From Candidatus Aminicenantes bacterium (GTDB lineage Bacteria; Acidobacteriota; Aminicenantia; Aminicenantales; Saccharicenantaceae), in the NCBI GenBank assembly GCA_963784525.1, contig CAWART010000014.1, forward strand, positions 23,884 to 87,883: a stretch of DNA of 64,000 nt, written 5' to 3'. The notes below the pieces were generated by a model. The model saw nothing but the letters and a program-made list of their open reading frames with translations, searched no databases and was not told the DNA's origin. Shown here piece after piece: positions 4,014 to 23,184 of the stretch. The stretch's first letter is position 1. Every line of letters begins with the position of its first letter. Both the position numbers and the translations under genes were made by a program.

Positions 4014-5218
4014 GGAAGCGTCGCGCGTTGGGAATGGGCATGCTGCTGACGATGGGGCTCGCGGCCGCGGTGACCGGCTCGGCCCAGTTCCGCGACGATT
4101 TCGACGGGCCGTCCCTGAGGATCGACCCCGAGGGCGCGTCCGGCTGGGGATTCGCGACCGGAGAGGGCCAGGCCGTCATGGACCTGAAGCAGGGGGACGG
4201 CTGCGCCGTCATTGCCGTGGACGCGACCCGGGATCGCCGGAACGTCTGGTGGGCCTACATCGTCCGCCGGGTATCCGACGGCATGGACCTCGGCCTGCTG
4301 CGGAAGCCCGGCCGCGCGCTTCGCATCGAGGCCCGGATCCGTGTCAGCCACGCACCCCGCCGGGTGAACCTCCACCTCAACACTCAGAGGACCACGGATT
4401 TCCACAGCCACCTGATGGAGTTCGATATCCCCGATACGGATAACTGGCACGTCATCAGCATGACCACCCGGGACTTCGACGCCTGTCCTGGGGACGTCGT
4501 CAACGGCCAGATGGCCCTCATGGACTGGGGCCCCGGAAAGTACCGGGTGGACGTGGACTATTTCCGGGTCGATATCGTCGACACGGCGGTCTCCGGCCCC
4601 GACCTGGGGAACGCGGTCCCCTATCACCCGCCGGTCCCGGACCCAGCCTCGTTCGCCCACGCCGTCCCCGCCGCCCAGGACGCCGTGATCGATCGGGACG
4701 ACCCGGACTCGAACCTGAACGACTGGGTCGTCCGCGATGGAAAGGGCGAGGCCCGCATCCTATCGGTTTCCGGGACCCGCTTCGTCATCCTTCGCTGGGA
4801 CCTGTCGGCGTTCGCCGGGAGGAAGGTCGCGCGTCACGGCCTCCTCGAGCTGACCACGCGTTCGGTCGCCCGGACCGCCGATAAGCGGCCCGATTTCGGA
4901 GAGGTGCGGGTCGTCGAGATCCCGGGCGGCGATCCCCGATGGGACCAAAGGACCGTCACTCTGACGAGCTTTCTCCGGGGGGCGCCTCTCACGGAGGCCC
5001 TGAACCCGCAGATGATCATCGATCACCCGCCGGCCGACGGCGACGGCGGCAGGACCTATCTCACGATCTCCAAGTATGTCCTTCAGCGGCTCATCGACGG
5101 GAGGACCCTGGGCATCGCCGTCCGGGCCCTGGGCGCCCTGGACGCCTCCTTTTACGCGTCGGAAGAGGAGGACGGGCGCTATGCCCCGCGCCTGCGCTTC
5201 GATCTCGAGGGACGGTAG
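4010..5218 (+). CDS. Secreted hypothetical protein (possible DNRLRE/carbohydrate-binding-like C-terminal domain)
   Basis: ATGA overlap with the upstream stop. MRKRRALGMGMLLTMGLAAAVTGSAQ signal peptide. The C-terminal segment AQDAVIDRDDPDSNLNDW...LRWDLSAF resembles DNRLRE-type domains, a weak recollection. Confidence 0.6.
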   Translation: MRKRRALGMGMLLTMGLAAAVTGSAQFRDDFDGPSLRIDPEGASGWGFATGEGQAVMDLKQGDGCAVIAVDATRDRRNVWWAYIVRRVSDGMDLGLLRKPGRALRIEARIRVSHAPRRVNLHLNTQRTTDFHSHLMEFDIPDTDNWHVISMTTRDFDACPGDVVNGQMALMDWGPGKYRVDVDYFRVDIVDTAVSGPDLGNAVPYHPPVPDPASFAHAVPAAQDAVIDRDDPDSNLNDWVVRDGKGEARILSVSGTRFVILRWDLSAFAGRKVARHGLLELTTRSVARTADKRPDFGEVRVVEIPGGDPRWDQRTVTLTSFLRGAPLTEALNPQMIIDHPPADGDGGRTYLTISKYVLQRLIDGRTLGIAVRALGALDASFYASEEEDGRYAPRLRFDLEGR

Positions 5219-11497: not shown

Positions 11498-11623
11498 AAC
11501 GATCGAGGCCGACGCGGCCAACAGGGGTCCGCCAAACGGCGCCGACGCCGCATCCGATGATCCCCCCTTGACTGGGCCCCGGGAGAACGATCGGAGATCG
11601 ACAGGATCGTTTGAAGACAACCA

Positions 11624-11678
11624 ATGCCGGAGGAGGGGATCGAACCCACACCCGAGTTGCCCCGGACGGGATTTTGAG
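11624..11678 (-). repeat. att repeat, distal copy (displaced 3' portion of tRNA-Leu)
   Basis: Identical to 20521-20575 over 55 nt. Identity stops exactly where the anticodon stem would begin (aacggg here versus tcccgc in the intact gene). Confidence 0.9.
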
Positions 11679-11704
11679 AACGGGCCGGAATTTCAATCAC
11701 GCTT

Positions 11705-12814
11705 CTAACTGACTCTCGATGCAGGATTTACAGGGACCGGAAGATTGCCCGTCACCTTTTTGTGACCGTTTTGTGACACAAAATCGATCACGGCCGCTTT
11801 CTCGCCGGATCCGGAGACCAGGAATTCAACGGCCTCGATACTGAGCTCATCGTTCGGATGAAGGTATCGCTGAGTGACCAGGACCGATGAATGGCCATAG
11901 AGCTTCGAAATCGTCACGATATCAACGCCGTGCTCCAGAAGCCGCGTCCCGAAGGTCCGTCTTAGGTCGTGGAAATTGAAATCGGCTAGGCCGGCGCGTT
12001 CACATGCGGCCTCGAATCCGGACCTTACGCTCTTGTAGGGAAAGACGCGAGGGCCTTTGGACTCGGCCCTTAGATCCTCGAGCATTTCAAGGAGCGTTGA
12101 ATTAATCGGGATGATCCGAGCTCGCTTGCTCTTCGTCCTTTCAACTTTGATCCGGCGCCGCTCCAGGTCAACATTGTCCCAGGTTAGATTCAGCCCTTCC
12201 CTGTACCGGAGACCCGTATGCAGCAATAAAATCATCACCGGACGAATCCGCGGGGCGAGCTCCTTGAATAGCCGCTCTTCCTCGTCTTGCCGGAGGATCC
12301 TATCCCGGACCCGATCGGTCTCCGAGAACATCTTAATCCCCTTCACCGGATTCGAGCTGAGGAGTCCGCGGGCGATAGCCCAATTGAACATCTTCCGCAA
12401 AAGGGCCAGGTGTCGGTTTGCCGTTGTCTTGGCGATCCCTTCCCGCAGCCTGGCCTCCCGGAATTCGCGGACCATGACTTCCGTGATTGATCCGGCCCTA
12501 GCGCTCCCGAAATACTGACGGATTGAGCGGAGCTTGTATTCGTCCGTCTTCCAGCTCGTTTTCTCACTCTTCGCGTATTCGTTCAGATACTTCTCCGCGA
12601 ATTCTCCGAAGGGTATCAGCTCCGCTGTCGGCTGGCGGCTGAATCGGCCGCTCATGGTCCCGGCGACTTTCGCTTGGAGCTCGATCGAACGCTTCTTCCC
12701 TCGTCCTGGCACCCTTGACGACCTCCCGGATCCGCTTCCCTTCATGTCGATATTCAATGTGCCAATGATCCGGGCCGCCTTCCGTCTTCCGAATAAGAAC
12801 CGTCCCAAAGCCAT
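11705..12814 (-). CDS. int: Tyrosine-type site-specific integrase (core-binding + catalytic domains); N-terminal part appears to be in another frame
   Basis: HTGLRYREGL (Arg), HDLRRTFGTRLL (His-x-x-Arg), YGHSSVLVTQRYLH (His...Tyr). The first ~45 codons of the track ORF are Gly/Arg/Ser junk, and real sequence starts around IELQAKVAG. See the frameshift finding. Confidence 0.85.
   Translation of the reverse strand: MALGRFLFGRRKAARIIGTLNIDMKGSGSGRSSRVPGRGKKRSIELQAKVAGTMSGRFSRQPTAELIPFGEFAEKYLNEYAKSEKTSWKTDEYKLRSIRQYFGSARAGSITEVMVREFREARLREGIAKTTANRHLALLRKMFNWAIARGLLSSNPVKGIKMFSETDRVRDRILRQDEEERLFKELAPRIRPVMILLLHTGLRYREGLNLTWDNVDLERRRIKVERTKSKRARIIPINSTLLEMLEDLRAESKGPRVFPYKSVRSGFEAACERAGLADFNFHDLRRTFGTRLLEHGVDIVTISKLYGHSSVLVTQRYLHPNDELSIEAVEFLVSGSGEKAAVIDFVSQNGHKKVTGNLPVPVNPASRVS
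11755..11778 (+). repeat. 24-bp repeat copy 1 (candidate arm-type integrase site), inside the int 3' end
   Basis: CCTTTTTGTGACCGTTTTGTGACA, identical to 20388-20411. Contains two TTTTGTGAC direct 9-mers. Confidence 0.6.
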
Positions 12815-13100
12815 AATTCCAGCGCCTTGTGCTTTTACTCAAGGCGCTTCTCCCTCCTTTCAGCCGGAGTCTATCATAGCTGTCAAGAGAGAGGCTAACG
12901 TCCGGCAAGAGCGCCGCGGGATCCACAAACCGGGCCCGCCGGCGTTCCAGGAATTCGTCAATCTGCTTTTGCTCGAACCTGACCCGGCCATTGACGGAAA
13001 CAGACGGGATCCTTCCCGTTCTTTTCCATTGGTAAAGAGTCTTCGGATGGACAGAGAGAAGCCCGCTGACTTCTTTAACGTCAAGCAGCGCTTCTCTCAA
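12564..13100 (-). CDS. Excisionase-family HTH domain followed by an integrase arm-binding-like segment
   Basis: LLDVKEVSGLLSVHPKTLYQWKRTGRIPSVSVNGRVRFEQKQIDEFL is the HTH_17/Xis pattern. WNYGFGTVLIRKTEGGPDHWHIEYRHEGKRIREVVKGARTREEA looks like an integrase N-terminal arm domain. The last ~35 aa are junk and overlap int by 251 nt. Confidence 0.7.
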   Translation of the reverse strand: MREALLDVKEVSGLLSVHPKTLYQWKRTGRIPSVSVNGRVRFEQKQIDEFLERRRARFVDPAALLPDVSLSLDSYDRLRLKGGRSALSKSTRRWNYGFGTVLIRKTEGGPDHWHIEYRHEGKRIREVVKGARTREEAFDRAPSESRRDHERPIQPPADSGADTLRRIRGEVSERIREE

Positions 13101-13117
13101 ATCGCTTCCCTCACCGT

Positions 13118-14572
13118 TTAGGCCAGGCTTATCCTTCCATTCCTGAAAGCGGGCTTCAAACGCTCCCCGGGCCCACAGAGCCGGCGGATATTGGGCTCAC
13201 AGCGCGGAGCTTGTGCAAGGACGCAGACGCCGGCCGCGGCGTTCGCAAGGTCATCATGGCCGCCGGGATAATGCGTGATCTGATCCTTTCCCCCGCTCCG
13301 GACCCGCCGCTCGAGCCCCGTAAGCTGCCCCGCAAGTCTCTTGACGTCCAAGAGCTCAACTGTCCCGTTCGATATCAGCGGGAGAAAATTCAGATAGAGC
13401 TCCGAAGCCGAAAGCTCCGATGGTCTGACCGTGACCCCGTTTTCCTGGAAGGCCGACGCGACCCAATCTCCGGCATACCTGTCGGCCGTGACTTCGAAGA
13501 GGCCAAAGGATTTCATCAGGTCCGAATATTCAGAGACAACCGCCTTCGGCTGGAAGGGCGGCCGCCGCTCCCGGAGAACGTCCAAGATGATCTTCCCGGA
13601 TATCTCACGGTGAGAAATCCCAAGAGTGAACGAGTCCTGGCGCCCGCCGCTAGGATCCGCAAAGGCATGGTATTGGACGCCCTCGAGCCTCGGCAGCTCG
13701 AACCGGCCCGGCGCCGTCACAGCTTCGACGAGCTCTTGTGTGATGAACGCCTCGATGTCCTGACGCCATTCGGCTTCCCATTCAGCGGCCGCGGCCTGAG
13801 GATCCTCTTTCAGGGCGTTGTCTATGAGCCGCTTGTCGATCGTCGGATTCATCGTCTTCGTCGGCGCCTTCCAGATCAACGGCCCCCCAGGCTTCCCATA
13901 GTGGGCCCGGAACATATCGAACAGCACGCCGCCGCGGCTGTAAGGCGTCGATATCCCCAACAGTAAACTCTCCGGGATCGTCGCCAGCGCCGGCCGGATC
14001 GCCGACAAGATTTCCTTGTCCGGGTTCGCGCTGTCTTCGCTCCGCCAGAACGCAATCTCTTCCAGGATCGCCGCCAGGACCGTATATCCCCGGATCGCCC
14101 GAAAGCTCGCCGTCTTCACCGCGATATTGATCCCGTTCCGGAGCTCGAGCGTTTCTACCGTCTCTTTCTCTACCAGGAGCTTGAGAGACCTCACCCGCTG
14201 GAAGATCCCGGAGATATAAGCCTTGATGATCCCCGCCTGGGCCTTGTCGTTCGCGATAATGAAGATCCAACCTTTCTCCCCAGGGCTCATGTAAGGCTTC
14301 CAATCCCGGAAGCTGGCCAGGTAGGCCGCGATCACAGCGCTCATATAGCTTTTCCCGGACCGCCGGCCGCAAATCACAAAGCTTTCCCGGATCCGCTCGG
14401 CCGCTGGTTTCGACAAGCCCGTACATGCTTTGAATAGCTTCCGGTCCTTTTCGTCCTCAATCGGAAGCCCGAAGAGGCCCTTAAGATAGACCTCCCAGGC
14501 ATGCCAGGTCTGAGCCTCCTTGAAGAGGGGTCCGAAGACCGCCTTATTATGCAGCGCGTCTATGATGTCCAT
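13118..14572 (-). CDS. terL: Phage terminase large subunit
   Basis: 484 aa. Walker A-like CGRRSGKSY. Acidic LAAILEEIAFW. C-terminal nuclease region FADPSGG...ADRYAG...HYPGGHDDLANAAAG. Confidence 0.85.
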   Translation of the reverse strand: MDIIDALHNKAVFGPLFKEAQTWHAWEVYLKGLFGLPIEDEKDRKLFKACTGLSKPAAERIRESFVICGRRSGKSYMSAVIAAYLASFRDWKPYMSPGEKGWIFIIANDKAQAGIIKAYISGIFQRVRSLKLLVEKETVETLELRNGINIAVKTASFRAIRGYTVLAAILEEIAFWRSEDSANPDKEILSAIRPALATIPESLLLGISTPYSRGGVLFDMFRAHYGKPGGPLIWKAPTKTMNPTIDKRLIDNALKEDPQAAAAEWEAEWRQDIEAFITQELVEAVTAPGRFELPRLEGVQYHAFADPSGGRQDSFTLGISHREISGKIILDVLRERRPPFQPKAVVSEYSDLMKSFGLFEVTADRYAGDWVASAFQENGVTVRPSELSASELYLNFLPLISNGTVELLDVKRLAGQLTGLERRVRSGGKDQITHYPGGHDDLANAAAGVCVLAQAPRCEPNIRRLCGPGERLKPAFRNGRISLA

Positions 14573-14575
14573 GGA

Positions 14576-15079
14576 TCATTCCTCTCCGTCGATTTCGCCC
14601 TGAGAAGCCCTAGGATCAACAATCTTCTTTTCTCCCTGGTCCGTTGCTGCCTTCTCCGCGTCGATCGCAGCCGCAAGAGCCAGGGGGTCCAGGACGCCTT
14701 CCTCTATCCTCTTCGAGATCCCGAGCTCCCTCAGGTTCAAGCGGATCGTGTTCACATATGCCAGATAGTTCTGCCCGAGGACGGGATCGAGCTTCTTTCC
14801 CCTAAAGGCGCCCTCCCGCCTCACGTATGCTTCGAGGCAGAGAGTGACCTGGTACAGGTTCACCGTCTTGTCTATCAAGATCGCCTGTGCTGCTGTCAAA
14901 GCCGGCTCAGTACCCCCTATGTCCTTGATGAGCTGTTCCCTTATGCCCTGCACTTGACGCCGGACGGCGAGCGGGATATCCTTACTGACGGAGCTATAGC
15001 CGCCATGACGGACCGCTACGGTATGCCCGGGCAAGAAGCGTCCCGTCACTTTATCCCTGTCTTTCCTCAGTTTAGGCAT
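14576..15079 (-). CDS. Terminase small-subunit-like protein
   Basis: 167 aa immediately upstream of terL (4-nt gap). The N-terminus KDRDKVTGRFLPGHTVAVRHGGYS resembles small terminase N-termini. Assignment rests on position plus this weak motif. Confidence 0.5.
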   Translation of the reverse strand: MPKLRKDRDKVTGRFLPGHTVAVRHGGYSSVSKDIPLAVRRQVQGIREQLIKDIGGTEPALTAAQAILIDKTVNLYQVTLCLEAYVRREGAFRGKKLDPVLGQNYLAYVNTIRLNLRELGISKRIEEGVLDPLALAAAIDAEKAATDQGEKKIVDPRASQGEIDGEE

Positions 15080-15270
15080 GATTCTTGTCCCGTTTTACCC
15101 TTGAAATCGGCCCCTTTCGCCCATTGGCCCATTGATTCGATGGTAAATAAGCCCTTTCTGTCCCCATTGGGGCCAAATAACGACGGGATGAAAAAGCATA
15201 ATTTGTGTACGTCTCTCATATGATTTATTATCTGCACGTTACGTCTCTATCGTAGTTTACCGAAGAGCAC

Positions 15271-16104
15271 TTATCCGACACAGTTATTTCCCTCTATCAA
15301 AACGCACTTGCCCTCGATTTCAGAGGCACCCAGGGGCCCGGGGAGCGGATTTGTCTCGCGAAAGTTTCTCGAGTCCTCGCGATTCTCTCGCGAGTCAGTC
15401 GCGAGTCCTTCCGTAATCTGTCTCTCTTCGTCTGAGCTCATCCCGGGACCGGGCGCCGGCTGAGGATCCTTGGGCTCGACTTCCCCGCTGACGACTTCCC
15501 CACCCTCCCCTAGGAGAAATTCAGGGATAAGCTGATCAGGCCGAAGGCTACGGAGATAGGCTAGAGTCTTGGCCTTCCCGAGCTCTTTTGCCATTTGACG
15601 AAGAAGCTCAGTTGAAACAGGCGACGGTTCGGGCCGATTGAGGACCGAACCGCTCCCCCGGGAGGGGGCGGGGGGGGCGACTTCTTTCTGGTCTGATTCT
15701 CTTTCATTCTCTTTAAGAGTCTTTACTAGCCGTGTTTTCCGGCTAGTAGAGATTGCACGGTTTTCCGGCTGGTAGGGATCAGTCGGGTTTTCCGGCTTAA
15801 CCCCGAATTTACCGGTATTCTCGTCTCTTTTGCGCTCCCTACTAGCCGTATTTTCCGGCTTGTAGGGGAGGCTGATTTCGGGGGTGTCAAGGACCGTAAA
15901 GACGTTCTTGAATTTCCGGCCCTGGTGGAACCGATGCTTACGGATCAGGCCGACTGACACAAGGCGCTTGATTGCTGCCTGGACGGCGTCTCTCTGGAGC
16001 CCGGCTTCCTTGCAGAGACAGGCTAATGAGGGGAAGGCTTGCCTGGAATTGTATTGCGAGTGCCGGAGGATCACGGCGTAGGTCTTGAGCTCTGAGCCCT
16101 TCAT
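15271..16104 (-). CDS. Winged-helix (HTH_36-like) replication-initiator-like protein containing internal iterons
   Basis: N-terminal YAVILRHSQYNSRQAFPSLACLCKEAGLQRDAVQAAIKRLVSVGLIRK is a wHTH pattern of phage/plasmid initiators. The central low-complexity region is encoded by four DNA repeats. Confidence 0.6.
   Translation of the reverse strand: MKGSELKTYAVILRHSQYNSRQAFPSLACLCKEAGLQRDAVQAAIKRLVSVGLIRKHRFHQGRKFKNVFTVLDTPEISLPYKPENTASRERKRDENTGKFGVKPENPTDPYQPENRAISTSRKTRLVKTLKENERESDQKEVAPPAPSRGSGSVLNRPEPSPVSTELLRQMAKELGKAKTLAYLRSLRPDQLIPEFLLGEGGEVVSGEVEPKDPQPAPGPGMSSDEERQITEGLATDSRENREDSRNFRETNPLPGPLGASEIEGKCVLIEGNNCVG
15726..15866. repeat. Four iteron-like repeats (core TTTTCCGGCT), candidate replication origin
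   Basis: Cores at 15735, 15761, 15788 and 15851. Minus-strand consensus is CTACnAGCCGGAAAAyaCGG. One copy is read in a different codon phase from the others. Confidence 0.6.
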
Positions 16105-16200
16105 AAAGGCGAGAAGTCCGGAATCAATTAAGGCGTGCGGGTCTTCGAGTAGCCGGCCGCTGCTTTTTCTTCATCTGTCGCGGTCATGGGGTTGTCCCTT

Positions 16201-16241
16201 GCTTGAGCTTTGCTATAGCTTGGCTTAAGCCTGGCTATAGC
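16201..16241. promoter_or_regulatory. Four helically phased GCTnnAGC boxes (candidate operator array) upstream of the initiator-like gene
   Basis: GCTTGAGC, GCTATAGC, GCTTAAGC and GCTATAGC start at 16201, 16212, 16223 and 16234 (exact 11-bp phasing). The last three form a 30-bp near-palindrome (13/15 arm matches). Confidence 0.45.
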
Positions 16242-16374
16242 CCCCCTTCCAAAGGAGGGGCGGGGGCCCCTGGATCCCGAAGTGAGGCCCCCGCTGAAAG
16301 ACAGGAGACCAATATGGACAGGGCGGGCGCCCGGCTCCCAAGTTCATAGAGTGAACGCCCGCTCACCGAAGCCC

Positions 16375-17079
16375 TCAGCTGGCGGCGATTTCGTACTTGC
16401 AGAACGCCTCGGGGATGATCACCTGGCCGCCGACACGGCGCCTTGCGAGGAACCCGACCTCCCCGGTCTCCGCGTACTTTTCTGCAAGCCGCTGGACCAT
16501 GAACTGAACCCGGTCCACGATGAGGTAGCCCTGGGAAAAGTCGCCGAAGACGATCGGGAAGAGGCCCGCTGTTGCGGCCGGCATATCCACACACTCGAGC
16601 ACCGGATAACCGCACAGACGGTCCGGCTGGCCGTTCAAAAGGCCCGGCTGCCAAAGATAATTGCCCGAGACCGCGTCCTTGAGCCCGCGGATCAGCGCCT
16701 GGGTCTGGCGGGTCATAATCCATACGGCGTTCTTTCTGTATCCGGCCTTGATCTGGTAGGTAAGAGAGATGAGGGAGTCGGCCTTGATGAGAGAGGCGTC
16801 GCCGCTCGGGATGTGCGGGACCGAGGCGTTGGTGAGAATTCCTTCCGGCTGGCCGACGGCGTTTCCGCTGATGAACGCCGTCCCTTCGAGCGCGGCAAAC
16901 GCGCGGCTGAACTCCTCGACGAGCTCTTGTTCCAGGTTGAACGCGGAGTCCTCGATCATAGCCAGGGACGCTTTGGCGAGATAGGTCATTTCCGAGGGAG
17001 TGATCCGCTCCTTCCCGTAGGTGAGCCCGGTGACTTCGTTCCGCGTGCCGGTTTCCGTCACCCAGGTAGCCGTGCCCAC
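16375..17079 (-). CDS. HK97-family major capsid protein, C-terminal two-thirds (frame-disrupted gene)
   Basis: TATWVTETGTRNEVTG...AFNLEQELVEEFSRAFAALEGTAFISGNAVGQPEGIL...YPVLECVDMP...FGDFSQGYLIVDR fits the HK97 MCP pattern. The real reading continues upstream in another frame. Confidence 0.85.
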   Translation of the reverse strand: MGTATWVTETGTRNEVTGLTYGKERITPSEMTYLAKASLAMIEDSAFNLEQELVEEFSRAFAALEGTAFISGNAVGQPEGILTNASVPHIPSGDASLIKADSLISLTYQIKAGYRKNAVWIMTRQTQALIRGLKDAVSGNYLWQPGLLNGQPDRLCGYPVLECVDMPAATAGLFPIVFGDFSQGYLIVDRVQFMVQRLAEKYAETGEVGFLARRRVGGQVIIPEAFCKYEIAAS

Positions 17080-17513
17080 GGCCGTTCTCTTGGGACTCCG
17101 AGGGATTCCCGATTGGTGGTCCGGATCTTGGCGACGGTCCGGATCGGCGAGAACTCGGAGACGCCCTTGATGATCTCGTTTGCGAATTCGGGCGGGGCCA
17201 GGTATCCGGCCTGAGGATTGTTCGAGATTACCAGGGTCTTGAATTCATAGGGCTCCATACCTTCCTTGCCCTTACGCAGGAACTTGCCGAACGCCCGGAA
17301 CCCTTCGGATTTCAAGGCGCCACCGAAAGGCTTACCCTTCTCGGAACCCGGAAGGCCGCTCTCCGAAAGATCGTACCCTGGAGCCTTTAGCCTCACGACC
17401 TCCGTTTCCAGGGTGTCAATCCTTTGGGAGAACTTCTCGACGTAGTTCCTTCGGATGTCCGTCATTAATTCCTGGGTCTCTTGGACCAGTTGCCTTGTGG
17501 TTTCGTTGCTCAT
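17058..17513 (-). CDS. HK97-family major capsid protein, N-terminal part (coiled-coil delta-like region + start of the fold)
   Basis: Coiled-coil N-terminus, then NNPQAGYLAPPEFANEIIKGVSEFSPIRTVAKIRTTNRESLGVP. The frame then breaks, and the last 10 aa are junk. Confidence 0.8.
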   Translation of the reverse strand: MSNETTRQLVQETQELMTDIRRNYVEKFSQRIDTLETEVVRLKAPGYDLSESGLPGSEKGKPFGGALKSEGFRAFGKFLRKGKEGMEPYEFKTLVISNNPQAGYLAPPEFANEIIKGVSEFSPIRTVAKIRTTNRESLGVPRERPWARLPG

Positions 17514-17678
17514 TGGCGTAGTTTTACCTCCATGAATTTTTCGTTGGTGGGAAGTGGTGACTCCGGCTCCGCCGGGCTCCGGCTTGTCCGCCGCGCGTTT
17601 TAAGGGTAATTCGGAGTGGACGCTACCGGCTCCGCCCTATCTCGAATCCGAGTGCCTATAAGCGGCTCGGATGAAAGA

Positions 17679-18083
17679 TCAGACCTTCGGGAGCTTGACC
17701 TTGAGCCTCTTTGCCATGAAAAGGATCTCCTGCAACGTGAGGAAAAAGTTGTCTTTTTTACAGGATTCCAGGAGGAACTTGGCTCCGGAGTCTTCGGCCT
17801 TTTCTGCGGAAGATAAGAGTTCGTTTGCGAAAGTCCGGACAGGATTCCTGAGGATCGGATTCGACTCGCTGAAAAGCTCGGACCCCCAATAGGCCCGGCG
17901 CAGCTGGAATTCCTTCGGGACAGACTCTAGAACTTTCACGATCTTGCCCTGGATGTCTTCTGAGATAGTCCCGGCACCGCCCTGCTCGATAACCCGAATC
18001 CAACTGAGGCTCACGCCGGAGCTTTTCGCCAGACCGGCCTGAGTGAATCCCTTCAATTCCCTGAGTTCCTTAAGTGTTTTCAT
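17679..18083 (-). CDS. XRE-family HTH regulator (repressor-like)
   Basis: LKELRELKGFTQAGLAKSSGVSLSWIRVIEQG is an HTH_3 pattern. ggagg RBS. Driven by a near-consensus promoter. Confidence 0.85.
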   Translation of the reverse strand: MKTLKELRELKGFTQAGLAKSSGVSLSWIRVIEQGGAGTISEDIQGKIVKVLESVPKEFQLRRAYWGSELFSESNPILRNPVRTFANELLSSAEKAEDSGAKFLLESCKKDNFFLTLQEILFMAKRLKVKLPKV

Positions 18084-18105
18084 TTTGTCCTCCTACCTCA
18101 ATAAC

Positions 18106-18134
18106 AATATACTACTACCACTACCACTTGTCAA
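18106..18134 (-). promoter_or_regulatory. Near-consensus sigma70 promoter of the XRE gene
   Basis: Minus strand: TTGACA (18134-18129), 17-nt spacer AGTGGTAGTGGTAGTAG (tandem GTGGTA repeats), TATATT (18111-18106). Confidence 0.65.
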
Positions 18135-18140
18135 GTAGAA

Positions 18141-18172
18141 AAATAAAAAGGCCGGGACCGAAGCCCCGGCCT
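18141..18172 (-). terminator. Rho-independent terminator (minus strand)
   Basis: Minus strand: GGCCGGG-gcttcggt-CCCGGCC hairpin followed by TTTTTATTTTT. Confidence 0.75.
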
Positions 18173-18194
18173 GAGAGACGCGAAGATTATCCCG

Positions 18195-18326
18195 CTAAAT
18201 CCCGGGAACCTCTTGCTTATAGAGCTCGACGATCGGTAGGGTCTTCAAGAGCTCTCCCGCCGTCCCGGATTTCGCGGGAGGATTCTCTAGCCGCTCGACG
18301 ATGAGCGCCAGGACCAGGCTGGCCAT
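18195..18326 (-). CDS. Small hydrophobic protein (43 aa), or C-terminal part of a frame-disrupted gene
   Basis: Below the ORF-track cutoff; read by hand: MASLVLALIVERLENPPAKSGTAGELLKTLPIVELYKQEVPGI. The same frame stays protein-like upstream without an ATG (FGIQFWPGGKPIGSTYTTGII). The terminator follows. Confidence 0.3.
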   Translation of the reverse strand: MASLVLALIVERLENPPAKSGTAGELLKTLPIVELYKQEVPGI

Positions 18327-18352
18327 GATGATCCCCGTCGTGTACGTGGATC

Positions 18353-18577
18353 CTATCGGCTTTCCTCCCGGCCAGAATTGGATCCCGAATTGCTGAGGCG
18401 CGATATTTCAAAAATCTTGCAGAGCTGAAATATGATCGCCATTTCCTCAGCCTGATTACGGTTCCTCCCCTCTTGGACTTCGGCCTCGATCCACTCCCGC
18501 CATGCAGCACGGAGCGCGGCCTTCATTTCTGATTCTTTTTTCAATCCCTTCAACGTTCTAATCAAGTGTGTCTCCAT
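18353..18577 (-). CDS. Hypothetical phage protein
   Basis: The 74-aa ORF has a plausible helical sequence (KAALRAAWREWIEAEVQEGRNRNQAEEMAIIFQLCKIFEI). The tail (SNSGSNSGREESR) looks out of frame. Confidence 0.4.
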   Translation of the reverse strand: METHLIRTLKGLKKESEMKAALRAAWREWIEAEVQEGRNRNQAEEMAIIFQLCKIFEISRLSNSGSNSGREESR

Positions 18578-18605
18578 TGACTCGCAGCATGCCTTGCGGT
18601 ATGCT
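18577..18605 (+). promoter_or_regulatory. Orphan sigma70-like promoter pointing against the surrounding genes
   Basis: TTGACT (18577-18582), 17-nt spacer, TATGCT (18600-18605). The spacer and -10 carry the inverted repeat CAGCAT...ATGCTG. Confidence 0.5.
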
Positions 18606-18611
18606 GAAACC

Positions 18612-18691
18612 GGGTTGGTAACGACCCCAGGGCAAAGCTAACCACAGAGCCCTGACGGGCGGGTTTCTTCGGGAGCCCGCCCCCTTTTTTT
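18612..18691 (+). ncRNA. Candidate ~80-nt small RNA (promoter + intrinsic terminator, no ORF)
   Basis: Starts just after the 18577-18605 promoter. Internal stem CAGGGC-15 nt-GCCCTG. Ends in GGGCGGG-12 nt-CCCGCCC (18657-18682) followed by T7 (18685-18691). Ends are predicted, not measured. Confidence 0.4.
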
Positions 18692-18700
18692 ACAGTCAAA

Positions 18701-18889
18701 TCAGACTCCTTTCTGCCTTTTTAAGAATTCGCGTAATAGGTTCCGGGCAAGGTTTCCCGGCTTGTATTTCCCAGCGAACCAGCCGACGACCGTTTGACTG
18801 TGGATGCCTAGTTCCTTTGAAATACGATCGTAAGACCAACCAGACCTCTTCTTAAACTTCTTCAATTCCTCGAGCTCTTTATCTTCCAT
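18701..18889 (-). CDS. Small HTH DNA-binding protein (Cro/excisionase-like size)
   Basis: 62 aa. SGWSYDRISKELGIHSQTVVGWFAGKYKP is a helix-turn-helix pattern. ggaggg RBS. Confidence 0.65.
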   Translation of the reverse strand: MEDKELEELKKFKKRSGWSYDRISKELGIHSQTVVGWFAGKYKPGNLARNLLREFLKRQKGV

Positions 18890-18909
18890 TATTCCCTCCG
18901 TTATTCATA

Positions 18910-18975
18910 TAAATAATCCTATTAATATCTCTTGTCAAGAAATATTTTGACTTCCTTTTTGAGATTTATTAGACT
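18910..18975. promoter_or_regulatory. Back-to-back divergent promoters (switch-like region)
   Basis: Minus: TTGACA (18938-18933), 17 nt, TATTTA (18915-18910). Plus: TTGACT (18947-18952), 17 nt, TAGACT (18970-18975). The two -35 boxes form the inverted repeat TGTCAAgaaatattTTGACt. Confidence 0.55.
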
Positions 18976-19006
18976 GAGCAAGAATTTAAGCAAAGGGGTA
19001 GTTGGC

Positions 19007-19321
19007 ATGTCTCTATTGGGTCTGGTGTGGCTAATATTTACTTTTCTTTTTACGTTATTGGCGTTCTTAAGCTTTCGACAGGCGGAAAGAAAGATGAGCG
19101 GGATTACCCCCGTATCAAGACCGGAGGCCTATCTTGGCGAAGTGGAAATCTTAGGTATGGATCTCGATCAGCCGCTTAAAGAGTTCATTAAGGAATTCAA
19201 CAATTATCTTAAGAGTTACAACCATTCGACAAAACTTCAATACTTGTTGGCCGCCTGGGGATATGTTGCAGCTGGCCTTGTGTCCCTTGTTTCATTGGCG
19301 CTTTCTGAAGGATGGATTTAA
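19007..19321 (+). CDS. Small two-helix membrane protein, unknown function
   Basis: ATG at 19007 follows aaagggg. MSLLGLVWLIFTFLFTLLAFLSF and YLLAAWGYVAAGLVSLVSLAL are hydrophobic helices. The track start at 18932 lies inside the promoter. Confidence 0.6.
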   Translation: MSLLGLVWLIFTFLFTLLAFLSFRQAERKMSGITPVSRPEAYLGEVEILGMDLDQPLKEFIKEFNNYLKSYNHSTKLQYLLAAWGYVAAGLVSLVSLALSEGWI

Positions 19322-19350
19322 TAAAATATCGGTCGATTAAGGAGGTTGCT

Positions 19351-19536
19351 ATGCCACAATTTAAGCAGGGTGATGTAGTCGAATTAAAATCTGGAGGGCC
19401 TGATATGACCGTCTCCTCCACAGCGGGAAACGAACGTGTTGAGTGTATTTGGTTCTCAGGGAATGAGCCCAAGGTTCACACATTTGCCGAGCCGGTGCTC
19501 AAGCTCGTAAAAAAGAGTGCGGAGACATCTAGCTGA
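19351..19536 (+). CDS. DUF2158 (YodC-like) small protein
   Basis: aggagg RBS, then MPQFKQGDVVELKSGGPDMTVSS...VECIWFSGNE. The FKxGDxVxLKSGGPxMTV...CxWF pattern is as I recall for DUF2158. Confidence 0.65.
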   Translation: MPQFKQGDVVELKSGGPDMTVSSTAGNERVECIWFSGNEPKVHTFAEPVLKLVKKSAETSS

Positions 19537-19556
19537 ATCTAGGTATTTATAGGGAT

Positions 19557-20057
19557 TTATTTTTTTAGCTTTGAATTTAGTGCGTTGCTTTTATCCAGCA
19601 AATCGACGGGGTTCTTGAAGGGAGGCATTGCAAAAGTAAATACGGTTTTGCCCGGGCCATTAGATATAGAAAAATCGCCCAGCTGAATAATATTCATTCC
19701 TATCAATAGATCAATCCCGGGCGTGTTAATATCACATTCGGTCACTTGCACGTCTCGAATTGCGAACCTATTAGGCAATCCGATGTCCACGATATAAGTA
19801 TCGACTATTTTTTCGCTATTGACCCCTCGTACAATTGCTTTCCCCGTAGGGCTCAAACTCAGCGTTTTGACCACGTTTGAAGTAATAACCGTATTGGTGG
19901 CCCCGGTATCCCAGATACAGCGGACTTCCATCCAATCCGTAGCTGTCCCCCCGGAGATAGCGGTTGGCAACCTGATTGCTCCCTCTGTGACTAAAGTAGG
20001 GACAACGCGCTTATATGTGACCCTAAATGCGCGATGAAACGAGGACGGCCTTATCAT
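19557..20057 (-). CDS. Retropepsin-like (clan AA) aspartic protease
   Basis: 166 aa. Active-site IWDTGATNTVIT (D-T-G-A) and GIDLLIGMNIIQLG (the retropepsin G-x-D-x-LLG-x-D/N motif). About 40% G+C by spot count. Confidence 0.75.
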   Translation of the reverse strand: MIRPSSFHRAFRVTYKRVVPTLVTEGAIRLPTAISGGTATDWMEVRCIWDTGATNTVITSNVVKTLSLSPTGKAIVRGVNSEKIVDTYIVDIGLPNRFAIRDVQVTECDINTPGIDLLIGMNIIQLGDFSISNGPGKTVFTFAMPPFKNPVDLLDKSNALNSKLKK

Positions 20058-20064
20058 GCAGGGC

Positions 20065-20298
20065 TTATATACAGACCCTAGAATGAAATCGTTGGGTATA
20101 ATCTTCTTCTTTATCTGAGATCTGCTGTATAAGGAATGTGCCTAAGGGATACGCTTTCGCCGAAGTTCCTAAAGCGTCCTGGAGTGTCTCATAGACCCCT
20201 ACAACCTCCTCGTCCTTAATAACTATAAACTTCCCCGGGTACTTCTTTATTAACTCTTCCTTATTCGCAAGAAAGAACTGGTACTCTTTTTCTAACAT
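20065..20298 (-). CDS. Small partner protein, DUF5678-like (antitoxin-sized)
   Basis: 77 aa, 7 nt upstream of the protease gene. FLANKEELIKKYPGKFIVIKDEEVVGVYETLQDAL matches my memory of the DUF5678 pattern (KY-GK-hVAI-D--VV); needs HMM confirmation. Confidence 0.55.
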   Translation of the reverse strand: MLEKEYQFFLANKEELIKKYPGKFIVIKDEEVVGVYETLQDALGTSAKAYPLGTFLIQQISDKEEDYTQRFHSRVCI

Positions 20299-20387
20299 TT
20301 TATCCCTCTGTTATTTTATCAATGCGTAGCGATTTTTGTCAATTCTTTTCTCGCTCGAACGTCAGTTTTCACTAGGGGAAGCGACCC

Positions 20388-20411
20388 CCTTTTTGTGACC
20401 GTTTTGTGACA
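20388..20411 (+). repeat. 24-bp repeat copy 2 (candidate arm-type integrase site)
   Basis: Identical to 11755-11778. Lies 110 nt inside the tRNA-proximal att copy. Confidence 0.6.
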
Positions 20412-20520
20412 GATTAGATTGAAAAGCGCTGAAATCTAGGCTTTAGGACGGAAAGACGGACGGCCCGGACCTTGCATGGTAGGTCCATCGTAAGTATCTG
20501 ATTTCCAATAGAGATAAGGT

Positions 20521-20575
20521 ATGCCGGAGGAGGGGATCGAACCCACACCCGAGTTGCCCCGGACGGGATTTTGAG
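20521..20575 (-). repeat. att repeat, tRNA-proximal copy
   Basis: Covers tRNA-Leu from the first anticodon-loop nucleotide to the discriminator, plus 1 nt. Confidence 0.9.
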
Positions 20576-20607
20576 TCCCGCGCGTCTGCCAGTTCCGCCA
20601 CTCCGGC
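20522..20607 (-). tRNA. tRNA-Leu (anticodon CAA), type II with long variable arm
   Basis: Hand-folded. Acceptor GCCGGAG/CTCCGGC. Anticodon arm CGGGA-CTCAAAA-TCCCG. Variable stem CCGG/TCGG. T arm GTGGG-TTCGATC-CCCTC with one U-U mismatch. No encoded CCA. Confidence 0.85.
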
Positions 20608-20700
20608 GCGCCGGACTGAATATAGACGAAATCTCCCCCCTTTTCAATCCTCCGTTTGACCTTCCGGTCCCTTTTAATTACAATCCATGCGGCAAGGCAC

Positions 20701-21711
20701 ATGAATACGAGCAGAGCGGAGAGAGAGAAGCTTCTCGGTTATATTGACCGGTTCGAGGGGTTGCGCGTCGCCGTCTGGGGCGACCTCATCCTCGACGAGC
20801 ACCTCTACGGGACGACCCACCGCATCTCCCGCGAGGCCCCGGTCCTCATCCTGACCTACAAAGGGCAGGAGTATTCCCTGGGCGGAGCGGGCAACGCCAT
20901 CCAGAACCTGAAGTCCCTGGGAGCCTACCCGGTTCCCGTCGGCGTCGTCGGCAGGGACGCGGAGGGACGCCGGGTGCTGAGCCTCCTGAGGTCCAGAGGC
21001 ATCCCCACCGGGCACATCATTCAGGAACGGGGCTATCGGACGCCCCTGAAGACGCGGATCATGGCCGGCGAGGAGAACACGCGCAAACAGCAGATCCTGC
21101 GCATCGACCGCGAAGGCCGTGTCCCCGACTCCCCCGCCCTGACCAAGCGGGTCCGCAGGTCCGTCGACGCCGTCATCCGGGAATGCGCCGCCCTCCTCGT
21201 CTCCGACTATCACTATGACACCGTCAAGGAGGGCATCTACGCGGAGGTCCTCCCCGCGGCGGTCGCCGCCCGCGTCCCCGTCGCCGTCGATTCGCGGTTC
21301 CGGCTGATGCGCTTCGCCGGGGCGACGGTCGCGACCCCGAACGAGTCCGAGATCGAATCCGCCCTCGGCGTCGCGACCGGAGGGAGTGACGCGGCCCTGC
21401 GCGAGGCCTCGACGAAGGTCCTGAGAAAGCTCCGGTCCCCCGCCCTGCTCGTGACCCGCGGCTCGCGCGGCATGGTCCTCTTCGAAAAGGGCCGGCCGCC
21501 CTTCCCCATCCCCGTCCGCGGAACGACCGACATCGTCGACGTGACCGGGGCCGGCGACACCGTCATCAGCATCTTCACCCTCGCCCTGGCCGCCGGGGCC
21601 TCGTTCCGCGAGGCCGCCGAGCTGGCCAACTTCGGCGGAGGCGTCGTCGTCATGAAGAAGGGCGCCGCCGCGCTCAGCCCGCGGGAGCTCAGACAGGCGA
21701 TCCGATCTTGA
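20701..21711 (+). CDS. hldA: D-glycero-beta-D-manno-heptose-7-phosphate kinase (RfaE domain I, PfkB family)
   Basis: ATG at 20701. [15 protein letters not shown] and [12 protein letters not shown] (PfkB motif). Adjacent to the adenylyltransferase gene. Confidence 0.85.
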
Positions 21712-22199
21712 GACCCAGGAAGCTCCGGACCCTCTCCGCGCTCGCGAGGATCGCCGCCGCCGAAAGGCGGAGGGGACGCCGCGTCGTCCTGGCCAACGGC
21801 TGTTTCGACCTCATCCACGTCGGGCACGTCCGATACCTCCGGGGCGCCGCGGCGGAGGGCGACGTCCTCATCGTGGCCTTGAACGGAGACGCGTCGGTCC
21901 GGGCGCTCAAGGGCCCCGGGAGGCCGCTCATGCCGGAAGCCGAGAGGGCCGAGATGCTCGCGGCCCTCTCCTGTGTCGACTACGTCACCATCTTCCGCGA
22001 ACTTAACGTCGAAAAGGTCCTCAAGGCCCTTCGCCCGGACGTCCATGCCAAAGGCTCGGATTATACGGTCGACACGGTCCCGGAACGGGAGACCGTCAGG
22101 GCGCTGGGCGGCAAGGTCCGGATCGCCGGCGGGCCCAAGGTCCGCTCGACGCGGGACATCATAGGGTTCGTTGCCGGACGGAAGGAGACGTGTGGATAA
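21708..22199 (+). CDS. hldC: D-glycero-beta-D-manno-heptose-1-phosphate adenylyltransferase (RfaE domain II)
   Basis: [19 protein letters not shown] cytidylyltransferase HxGH motif. TTGA overlap with hldA. Confidence 0.85.
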
Positions 22200-23184
22200 T
22201 TTCCTCATCATCCGGCTGAGCTCGCTCGGGGACATCATCCACGCCATCCCCGCCTTCGCGGTCCTGCGCCGCGGGTTCCCCGACGCCCGCATCTCCTGGA
22301 TCGTCGATAAGGCCGGGAGCGAGATATTGGACCTGGTGCCGGGGCTGGATGAGATCATCATCCGCCGCGACATCGGCTGGTTCCGGCGCCTCAGGCTCAG
22401 GGACCGGACGGCCATCGATGTCCAGGGCCTCTTGAAATCCGCCCTCCTCGGCCGGCTTTCGGGAGCGCGACGCCGCATCGGATTCTCCGGGAGGAATCTC
22501 AAGGAGCCCGCGGCGGCGGTCTTCTATAACGAAAGGCTCGCCGCGTTCGAGGAGACGGGCCACGTCATCGGCAAGAACATCCGTCTGCTCGAAAAGCTGG
22601 GCCTGGAACCGGGCGCGGACGGGTACGAGTTCCCCCTCGTCGTCCCCGAGACCCCCCGTTGCCGCGTGGCCAGCGCTCTCGAGCGGCTGGGCCGGACGCC
22701 GGAGCAGAAGGTCGTTCTCTGCAACGTCGGGGCGGCGTGGGAAAGCAAGCGGTGGCCGGCCGAGCGGTGGATGGAGCTCGTCCCTTCGCTCACAAGAATG
22801 GACCTCTTCCCGCTCCTTCTTTGGGGGAACGCCGCCGAGAAACAGACCGCCCAGGCGATCGCGGATCGAACGGGCGTCCCCGCGGCCCCGTTCTTCACGA
22901 TCCCGGAGGTTCTGGCCCTCATCGCGGCCTCCAGGCTTCTCATCAGCGGGGACACCTTCGCCCTGCAGGCGGCCTGCGCCCTTGACGTCCCGGTCGTCGG
23001 CCTGTTCGGTCCGACCAACGCGAAGCGCAACGGGCCCTTCCGGGAGCGGGACAGGACGGCTCAGGCCTCGATGGAATGCCGTCCCTGCTGGAAGAGGGAA
23101 TGCCCGACGATGGCCTGCTTGAGCGCCATCACCGCCGCGGAAGTCGCCGGACTCGTCAGGGAGGTCCTGGGCCGGAATGACTGA
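22192..23184 (+). CDS. Family 9 glycosyltransferase (LPS heptosyltransferase-like)
   Basis: [37 protein letters not shown] and [14 protein letters not shown]. Start set at the GTG after ggaaggaga. Confidence 0.85.

Follow-up and report, generated by a model that had tools for sequence, protein, structure and literature searches.

A DUF5678 gene paired with a retropepsin-like protease gene in an integrative element of Candidatus Aminicenantes: a possible toxin-antitoxin-like cassette

This work concerns a cassette of two small genes found in a 64,000-nucleotide stretch of DNA (hereafter the window, positions being counted from its first letter) from Candidatus Aminicenantes bacterium (GenBank assembly GCA_963784525.1, contig CAWART010000014.1). 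The cassette encodes a protein of 77 amino acids (aa) that belongs to the DUF5678 family and, directly downstream, a 166-aa aspartic protease with the retropepsin fold. It is the last cargo before the intact tRNA gene, at the end opposite to the integrase gene, of an 8.9-kb integrative element bounded by attachment (att) sites. A preliminary description of this DNA had proposed that the two genes form a toxin-antitoxin or anti-phage system. The present analysis reveals an autonomous cassette, often carried by mobile DNA, in which the two genes are nearly always found together and the protease gene is the one that decays; reading it as a toxin-antitoxin or defence system is reasonable but so far hypothetical.

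Both genes are carried by the minus strand. The small gene (20298..20065), which contains KKYPGKFIVIKDEEVVGVYETLQDAL and encodes the proposed inhibitor or antitoxin, precedes the protease gene (20057..19557), which contains IWDTGATNTVIT and the motif GIDLLIGMNII and encodes the proposed effector. A 7-nt spacer (20058..20064, minus strand) separates the stop codon of the former from the ATG of the latter; the sizes and spacing announced in the preliminary description are exact when the minus strand is read. A strong candidate promoter of the sigma-70 type, matching 11 of 12 consensus positions, lies ahead of the small gene on the same strand (20342..20313); it includes TTGACA, an 18-nt spacer and TAAAAT, with a TG typical of an extended -10 box. 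This promoter was recognized by its match to the consensus, and the pair would be transcribed from it. The small gene displays a GAGGG Shine-Dalgarno sequence about 6 nt ahead of its ATG. As no clear Shine-Dalgarno sequence was found in the 7-nt spacer before the ATG of the protease gene, the translation of the protease is likely coupled to that of the small gene. The position of this ATG (20057) is supported by homologues of 165-167 aa that span 96-98% of the long open reading frame (ORF). The whole cassette, including its own promoter, is about 740 bp. Close spacing is a general feature of the pair: in a set of 150 pairs, the two genes are separated by a median of 4 nt, the most frequent values being -1, -4 and -8, and the gap falls between -20 and +20 nt in 78% of cases, which bears out the tight coupling claimed earlier.

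The downstream protein matches the Pfam families Asp_protease_2 (PF13650; E=9.9e-8, 33.0 bits for a cut-off of 24.3) and gag-asp_proteas (E=3e-6, 28.3 bits for a cut-off of 28.2). Its AlphaFold2 model, with a predicted local distance difference test score (pLDDT) of 91.4, displays the beta-barrel of retropepsins. The top Foldseek match of this model is the Rickettsia protease APRc (5c9f, E=6e-7), and the Foldseek probability reaches 1.00 for APRc, for the proteases of the simian (SIV) and feline (FIV) immunodeficiency viruses and of equine infectious anaemia virus (EIAV), and for Ddi1. By motif, profile and fold, the protein is therefore a member of the retropepsin-like clan. APRc, the retroviral proteases and the RVP domain of Ddi1 all work as homodimers, and the window protease is presumably a homodimer too. 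Its model adds to the minimal retropepsin fold a beta hairpin that extends the N-terminus and a helix at the C-terminus. It carries no transmembrane segment, signal peptide or hydrophobic segment and is predicted to be soluble.

The active site is intact. The catalytic motif D50-T51-G52-A53 (19899..19910, minus strand) was read directly from the codons GAT ACC GGG GCC, and D[TS]GA is found in all 141 intact homologues. In the protease alignment, W49 and the four residues of the motif are invariant, as are L94, G120, M121, G127, D128, N133, T138 and P145. The enzyme is thus predicted from its sequence to be catalytically competent. The second retropepsin motif, GIDLLIGMNII (G114 to I124; 19686..19718, minus strand), covers the 80s loop and the following helix and includes the invariant G120 and M121. 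The preliminary description had correctly reported both motifs, but its labelling of the second as a dimer-interface motif does not hold: we take LIGM(N/D) to be the conserved helix motif that follows the 80s loop of retropepsins, equivalent to IIGRN in the protease of human immunodeficiency virus (HIV) and not specifically belonging to the dimer interface.

A third of the homologues differ from the window protein at their C-terminus. Indeed, 47 of the 141 end with a SEC-C-like zinc motif (CPCGSGKKYKxCCG) that replaces the C-terminal helix; P0055, P0056 and P0076, and the loci L172 and L173, are examples. In SecA, the SEC-C motif binds SecB and ribosomes, and by analogy this tail may hint at where the protease acts. 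Matches of 11 protease family members to the PADLOC models E2 and PDC-S12 probably come from these SEC-C tails.

The upstream protein matches the Pfam family DUF5678 (PF18929; E=1.3e-10, 41.4 bits for a cut-off of 23.2) over residues 15-63, covering all 49 profile positions. Both family assignments of the preliminary description are thus confirmed by profiles above the Pfam cut-offs, and that of the protease also by fold. No match to the small protein was found in NCBIfam, PHROGs or PADLOC, and a sequence search of the PDB with both proteins returned nothing significant. Its core (residues 3-59) is predicted, with moderate confidence in a monomer model, to fold as helix-helix-strand-strand-helix-strand. 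The small protein is acidic, with an isoelectric point of 5.07, whereas the protease is basic (9.43). A profile search with the small protein retrieved 3040 clusters (at 50% identity) at E<=1e-3, 1056 of them at E<=1e-10. Almost all the proteins matching the DUF5678 profile stand alone, with lengths of 75-125 aa, and among the best 150 of the 3040 profile matches none is fused to a protease. A few family members of 160-190 aa (P0224, P0246 and P0355) carry two copies of the domain, in a tandem duplication.

The most conserved segment of the small protein lies outside the Pfam model. The C-terminal motif F71-H72-S73-R74-V75 (20074..20088, minus strand) is invariant in 34 of 34 aligned homologues and is located 2-5 residues from the C-terminus across loci. 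Where the partner has diverged, hydrophobic residues still alternate along the tail in a strand-like manner (for example, YTNYISSICF). Residues 68-77, which include the motif, have pLDDT values below 50 in the AlphaFold monomer model and are therefore predicted to be disordered. The simplest explanation for a segment that is the most conserved of the protein, yet lacks order when the protein is alone, is that it binds a partner, and FHSRV is here proposed to be the tail that binds the protease. The toxin-binding regions of type II antitoxins are likewise conserved and disordered in the monomer. A resemblance between the N-terminus of the protease (FHRAFRV) and the FHSRV tail was also considered; it is not conserved in distant homologues and was dropped.

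The linkage of the two genes was examined from both sides. The small protein alone, through a seed of 12 sequences, was searched against one genome per species (185,579 species genomes), and the patterns used retrieved 232 relatives, of which the best 80 loci were examined. On the protease side, the best 80 of the 192 relatives in IMG/VR and the best 80 of at least 568 relatives in metagenomes were examined. The small gene lies directly upstream of the protease gene, on the same strand, in 79 of the 80 IMG/VR loci, the only exception being a truncated protease, and in all 73 metagenome loci with enough upstream sequence, that is, in 152 of 153 assessable loci. Conversely, a protease homologue is found directly downstream, on the same strand, in 71 of the 80 loci seeded by the small gene. 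The co-occurrence anticipated in the preliminary description is therefore near-obligate, and the pairing is among the tightest that comparative genomics can demonstrate.

The linkage is, furthermore, asymmetric. Among about 150 intact proteases, none lacks the partner, whereas an intact protease is kept in about 62 of 79 assessable loci seeded by the small gene. In the remaining loci (about 17), the protease is absent from 8, split in two frames in 7, truncated in 1 and reduced to a C-terminal remnant in 1. Unrelated genes follow the small gene in the 8 loci devoid of protease, including genes encoding a Schlafen/AlbA-type ATPase, a dehydrogenase, a tRNA synthetase and a ParE toxin. A protease that decays beside a partner that is never lost is what would be expected if the protease were harmful without this partner.

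The main rival explanation is that the DUF5678 protein is the physiological substrate of the protease, which would trim or cleave its C-terminal tail to activate, inactivate or release it, the function of the cassette being carried by the small protein and not by the protease. Retropepsins classically process defined sites in partner polypeptides, and the exposed and disordered FHSRV tail resembles protease cleavage sites by these properties; the obligate linkage and the lack of any other conserved substrate gene nearby are also compatible with such a relationship. However, the motif is so close to the C-terminus that cleavage would free only a tiny peptide, and no transporter or further maturation gene is found among the flanking genes in 70 species. 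Furthermore, the loss of the protease from about 20% of the loci that keep an intact small gene, the reverse never being seen, would be odd if processing were needed. This explanation thus accounts for the tail but not for the asymmetric decay, and we consider it rather unlikely.

The 232 relatives retrieved with the small protein are spread over numerous phyla, including Acidobacteriota, Bacteroidota, Patescibacteria, Chloroflexota, Planctomycetota, Verrucomicrobiota, Nitrospira, Fibrobacterota and others. No match was found in the plasmid collection, and among cultured phages only five records were retrieved (Leptospira LE1-like phages and two faecal contigs). In one of the former (locus L171; KF114879.1, 72921-73648), an 80-aa hypothetical gene is followed by a stretch homologous to the protease, for which the record gives no gene annotation apart from a 150-nt glimmer ORF. 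On the viral contig L152 (4710-6423), a second protease homologue (4710-5156) lies just upstream of a complete pair, maybe as the result of a tandem duplication of the cassette. The scarcity of plasmid and cultured-phage records, together with the poorly studied phyla that harbour the cassette, probably explains why it has escaped study.

No third gene, and in particular no substrate gene, is conserved beside the pair, either in 70 species or in the viral contigs, which extends to other genomes the earlier remark that no substrate gene lies near the pair in the window. Indeed, the 131 immediate flanking proteins from these 70 species belong to 106 Pfam families, none of which is found in more than two loci. 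Another rival explanation sees in the pair no conflict module but a protease of the cytoplasm, made of two subunits or subject to regulation, which would serve housekeeping or stress responses like the ribosome-modifying RimB of Pseudomonas and happen to travel as a cassette. Many chromosomal loci are flanked by metabolic genes, the characterized bacterial enzymes of this kind (RimB, the Rlo proteins and APRc) have physiological and not conflict roles, and the SEC-C zinc motif found in a third of the homologues is consistent with such a function. However, the distribution is very patchy (232 relatives among 185,579 species genomes) and the genomic neighbourhood is not conserved; the pair often occurs in viral contigs and integrative elements, the GC content of the window copy does not match that of the host genome, and the protease often becomes a pseudogene. 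We therefore assign a low probability to this explanation.

In viral contigs, the neighbours include endolysin amidases (5), HTH_3 proteins (5), integrases (4), HTH_26 proteins (4), tail proteins (3), Bro/ANT antirepressors (2), HicA (2), D12 methyltransferases (2) and Ltp (1). Such places correspond to the accessory ("moron") slots of temperate phages. Among nine annotated contexts, six are integrative elements or prophages and two include defence-type neighbours. In one of the latter, the pair is associated with a Type ISP restriction-modification gene and with Schlafen and AAA_15 genes; in the other, it adjoins a gene encoding a NACHT NTPase. Some contexts are integrative elements carrying integrase, primase or helicase genes; another is a Mu-like prophage, where the pair lies between Gam and the morphogenesis genes, and yet another is a nondescript chromosome of Patescibacteria (the candidate phyla radiation, or CPR) without any element genes within 6 kb.

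Such contexts also bring to mind a switch of mobile elements following the logic of ImmA/ImmR, in which the protease would cleave a repressor or regulator to control induction and the small protein would modulate this cleavage. The presence of three helix-turn-helix (HTH) regulators in the element of the window, of Cro/CI-type HTH proteins, integrases and antirepressors among the neighbours in viral contigs, and of several homologues in integrative elements would fit this scheme. However, no HTH or repressor gene is consistently adjacent to the pair, and many loci, such as the one from Patescibacteria, are located in ordinary chromosomal regions devoid of element genes within 6 kb. In phage genomes, the pair occupies various positions: close to lysis genes, close to those of the tail or, in the Mu-like prophage, with Gam on one side and the morphogenesis genes on the other. 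A role as a switch thus appears improbable.

In the window, the element that carries the pair is delimited by a 64-nt direct repeat, 94% identical, of which the last 54 nt are exact. The copy adjoining the pair (20512..20575) covers the 3' part of an intact tRNA-Leu(CAA) gene (20522-20607, minus strand), and the distal copy (11615..11678), a partial copy of the tRNA gene, adjoins the gene of a tyrosine integrase (11705-12814, minus strand) at the far end of the element. The GC content is 0.45-0.49 at 18-20 kb (0.45 at 19-20 kb) and 0.65-0.70 in the flanks, so that the location of the pair in low-GC cargo next to an att site, put forward in the preliminary description, is verified. Between the two ends, the element also carries genes encoding a large terminase (13118-14572), an O-like replication initiator (15271-16104), an HK97-type major capsid protein, in two overlapping ORFs (16375-17079 and 17058-17513, minus strand), three HTH regulators and a DUF2158 protein.

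The presence of a major capsid gene and a large terminase gene, without any recognizable prohead protease, in the same element might suggest that the enzyme of the pair is the prohead maturation protease of this HK97-type capsid, a dedicated maturation role being the alternative that the preliminary description itself had set against its proposal. However, the pair is located 2.5 kb from the capsid gene, with three regulator genes in between, and an apparent frameshift splits this capsid gene in two. The weak PHROG match of the protease is to a tail fibre family and is not significant (E=0.09), and to our knowledge all known prohead proteases belong to other families. Furthermore, capsid and portal genes are not conserved neighbours across the 70 species and about 38 viral loci; as no third or substrate gene is conserved beside the pair, capsid maturation is excluded as a general function, and we consider this explanation rejected.

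Several other features of this element were observed. Lacking portal, tail and lysis genes, the element (11615-20575) looks like a decayed prophage or a phage satellite; its capsid gene, with an apparent frameshift near 17058-17079, could be a pseudogene or be expressed through a programmed shift. Just inside each end (11755-11778 and 20388-20411), the 24-nt sequence CCTTTTTGTGACCGTTTTGTGACA is repeated exactly; each copy is a tandem pair of 11-mers, CCTTTTTGTGA and CCGTTTTGTGA, which are candidate arm-type binding sites for the integrase or an excisionase. Within the gene of the O-like initiator, iteron-like direct repeats (15728-15860) comprise three 17-mers (AGCCGTGTTTTCCGGCT and variants), 53 and 63 nt apart, and a 26-nt tandem pair; this is likely the replication origin, in a lambda-like arrangement. 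Two small plus-strand genes (18932-19536) converge on the pair, the first encoding a 129-aa protein that has hydrophobic stretches and matches no family, and the second a 74-aa DUF2158 protein (PHROG 3261) of unknown function; the arrangement of the pair with DUF2158 recurs on a 1.7-kb contig (L081) from another sequencing run. Beyond the tRNA gene, the host flank (20656-23184) is high-GC DNA that carries lipopolysaccharide core genes, encoding an RfaE-like heptose kinase (PfkB-type), a cytidylyltransferase-like protein and a probable heptosyltransferase, as judged from their translations and not from a family search.

We propose, with about an even chance of being right, that the pair is an autonomous and horizontally mobile conflict cassette similar to type II toxin-antitoxin systems, with a protease as effector and a DUF5678 protein as inhibitor; it may act as an abortive-infection or addiction module borne by prophages or other elements. 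According to this proposal, the downstream gene would encode a soluble, dimeric effector of the retropepsin type, whereas the upstream gene, on the same transcript and with coupled translation, would provide an acidic protein able to bind and restrain it. The likeliest contact would involve the disordered C-terminal tail of the partner (YTQxFHSRVxF), which might add an extra beta-strand to the protease, acting as a pseudo-substrate in the substrate cleft or else docking at the dimer interface. If the partner were lost or titrated away, which we infer to be the trigger, the protease would be freed, and its presumed toxicity would result from the cleavage of cellular or phage proteins as putative substrates. 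A more specific version is possible rather than probable: the cassette would represent a new class of toxin-antitoxin or abortive-infection systems, with the FHSRV tail blocking the retropepsin in its cleft or at its dimer interface until the partner disappears, upon phage infection or when the element is lost, and the protease then cleaves essential proteins of the host or the phage.

The conflict reading of the preliminary description is supported in part, by the association of an acidic partner with a basic enzyme, by the conserved disordered tail and by a decay that affects only the protease; the contexts examined give no clear support to the enrichment in defence islands that it had suggested checking. 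Indeed, the immediate chromosomal neighbours in the 70 species are mostly ordinary metabolic genes, and defence-type genes were found in only two of the nine annotated contexts. Several other points weigh against the proposal of a conflict cassette. The linkage would also be expected from an obligate enzyme-substrate or two-subunit relationship, and the asymmetry compares two seeded sets that come from different collections, in which frameshifted proteases from metagenome-assembled genomes may partly reflect assembly errors. The small protein has no DNA-binding Pfam domain or recognizable DNA-binding fold, and its best Foldseek match in the PDB (E=0.68) assigns no fold to it; the autoregulation typical of type II antitoxins is therefore unsupported. 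In addition, no inverted repeat was found at the promoter of the pair, only an 8-nt direct repeat, GATAAAAT, in two copies. The pair matches no validated defence system, the only similarity in PADLOC being a weak one, between the protease and component B of the candidate system PDC-M08. Finally, coevolution does not place the tail on the protease. Mutual information with average product correction (MI-APC) puts 34 of the top 100 couplings on residues 67-77 of the partner, with T106, C108, V57 (the position equivalent to V32 of HIV protease) and P150 on the protease side, but these couplings are confounded by subfamily structure; in mean-field direct coupling analysis (DCA) of 193 pairs (effective number, 160), gap and indel columns dominate, so that no conclusion was drawn from either method.

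If the proposal of a conflict cassette is true, aspartic retropepsins would be a new enzymatic class in the toxin-antitoxin and anti-phage repertoire, and the cassette would be the first conflict system to rely on the fold of retroviral proteases. It would also give a first functional role to DUF5678, a family with more than 3000 sequence clusters, and would provide a natural protein inhibitor or pseudo-substrate of a retropepsin. Owing to its small size and its own promoter, the cassette is directly testable by expression.

Among candidate defence systems, the closest is PDC-M08, a PADLOC candidate with multiple genes whose component B is a retropepsin-like protein of about 127 aa. The PDC-M08B models are matched by 17 of 32 protease family members, with E=3e-4 for the window protease and 3.6e-6 for the best family member, which corresponds to similarity at the superfamily level. 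As none of 34 DUF5678 partners matches any PDC-M08 model, the pair is a different system. Literature searches retrieved no paper on PDC-M08, itself an unvalidated candidate, on this pair, on what DUF5678 does or on any retropepsin-based toxin-antitoxin or defence module. The earlier statement that no defence system built on a retropepsin is known must therefore be qualified by the distant retropepsin-like component of this candidate.

The preliminary description had also presented free-standing bacterial retropepsins as functionally uncharacterized, which is too broad, as APRc, RimB and the Rlo proteins have been studied. The window protease shares its fold and its D-T-G-A signature with APRc (5c9f/5c9b), retroviral proteases and the RVP domain of Ddi1, but it is only 10-22% identical to them. 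Furthermore, its family differs from them by the extra N-terminal beta hairpin, by the C-terminal helix or SEC-C tail and by an obligate DUF5678 partner; APRc is, in addition, embedded in the membrane (PMC4140852), unlike the soluble window protease. The TIGR03698 (AF_0612) family of NCBIfam also groups small, free-standing proteases of clan AA from prokaryotes; membership of the window protein in this family (clan_AA_DTGF) is ruled out by its score (15.4 bits for a cut-off of 57.35). RimB of Pseudomonas, encoded by the rimABK operon, and the secreted RloA-C are free-standing bacterial retropepsin-like proteases encoded in small operons; they are reported to act in the control of the glutamylation of ribosomal protein S6 and, in the periplasm or after secretion, in tolerance to osmotic stress (PMC11957791, PMC11957051). 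Unlike the pair, the RimB and RloA-C proteins, as described there, neither have a DUF5678 partner nor are associated with mobile elements. RloA (9g58) is among the weaker Foldseek matches of the window protease.

Proteases carried by mobile elements and involved in conflict or in the control of the element are exemplified by Lit, from the defective prophage e14, and by ImmA, which acts with ImmR in ICEBs1. However, Lit and ImmA are zinc metalloproteases unrelated in sequence to the window protease. Lit has no inhibitor partner, and ImmA is paired with an HTH repressor, which the pair described here lacks.

The closest parallel remains with type II toxin-antitoxin systems such as Phd/Doc, RelBE and ParDE. 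Like them, the cassette has the gene of a small acidic protein in first position and that of a basic enzyme in second position, the genes being close or overlapping. As in type II antitoxins, the partner combines a folded N-terminal part with a conserved and disordered C-terminal tail; like these systems, the cassette shows a patchy and mobile distribution, with orphan partners and decayed effectors but no orphan effectors. In contrast, the DUF5678 partner is devoid of the ribbon-helix-helix (RHH), HTH, AbrB or Phd-type DNA-binding folds of type II antitoxins. The proposed effector also sets the cassette apart: it is an aspartic protease with the retropepsin fold, a class to which no toxin described in the literature searched belongs. 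The cassette would combine an architecture similar to that of toxin-antitoxin systems with a new class of effector and a new family of partner.

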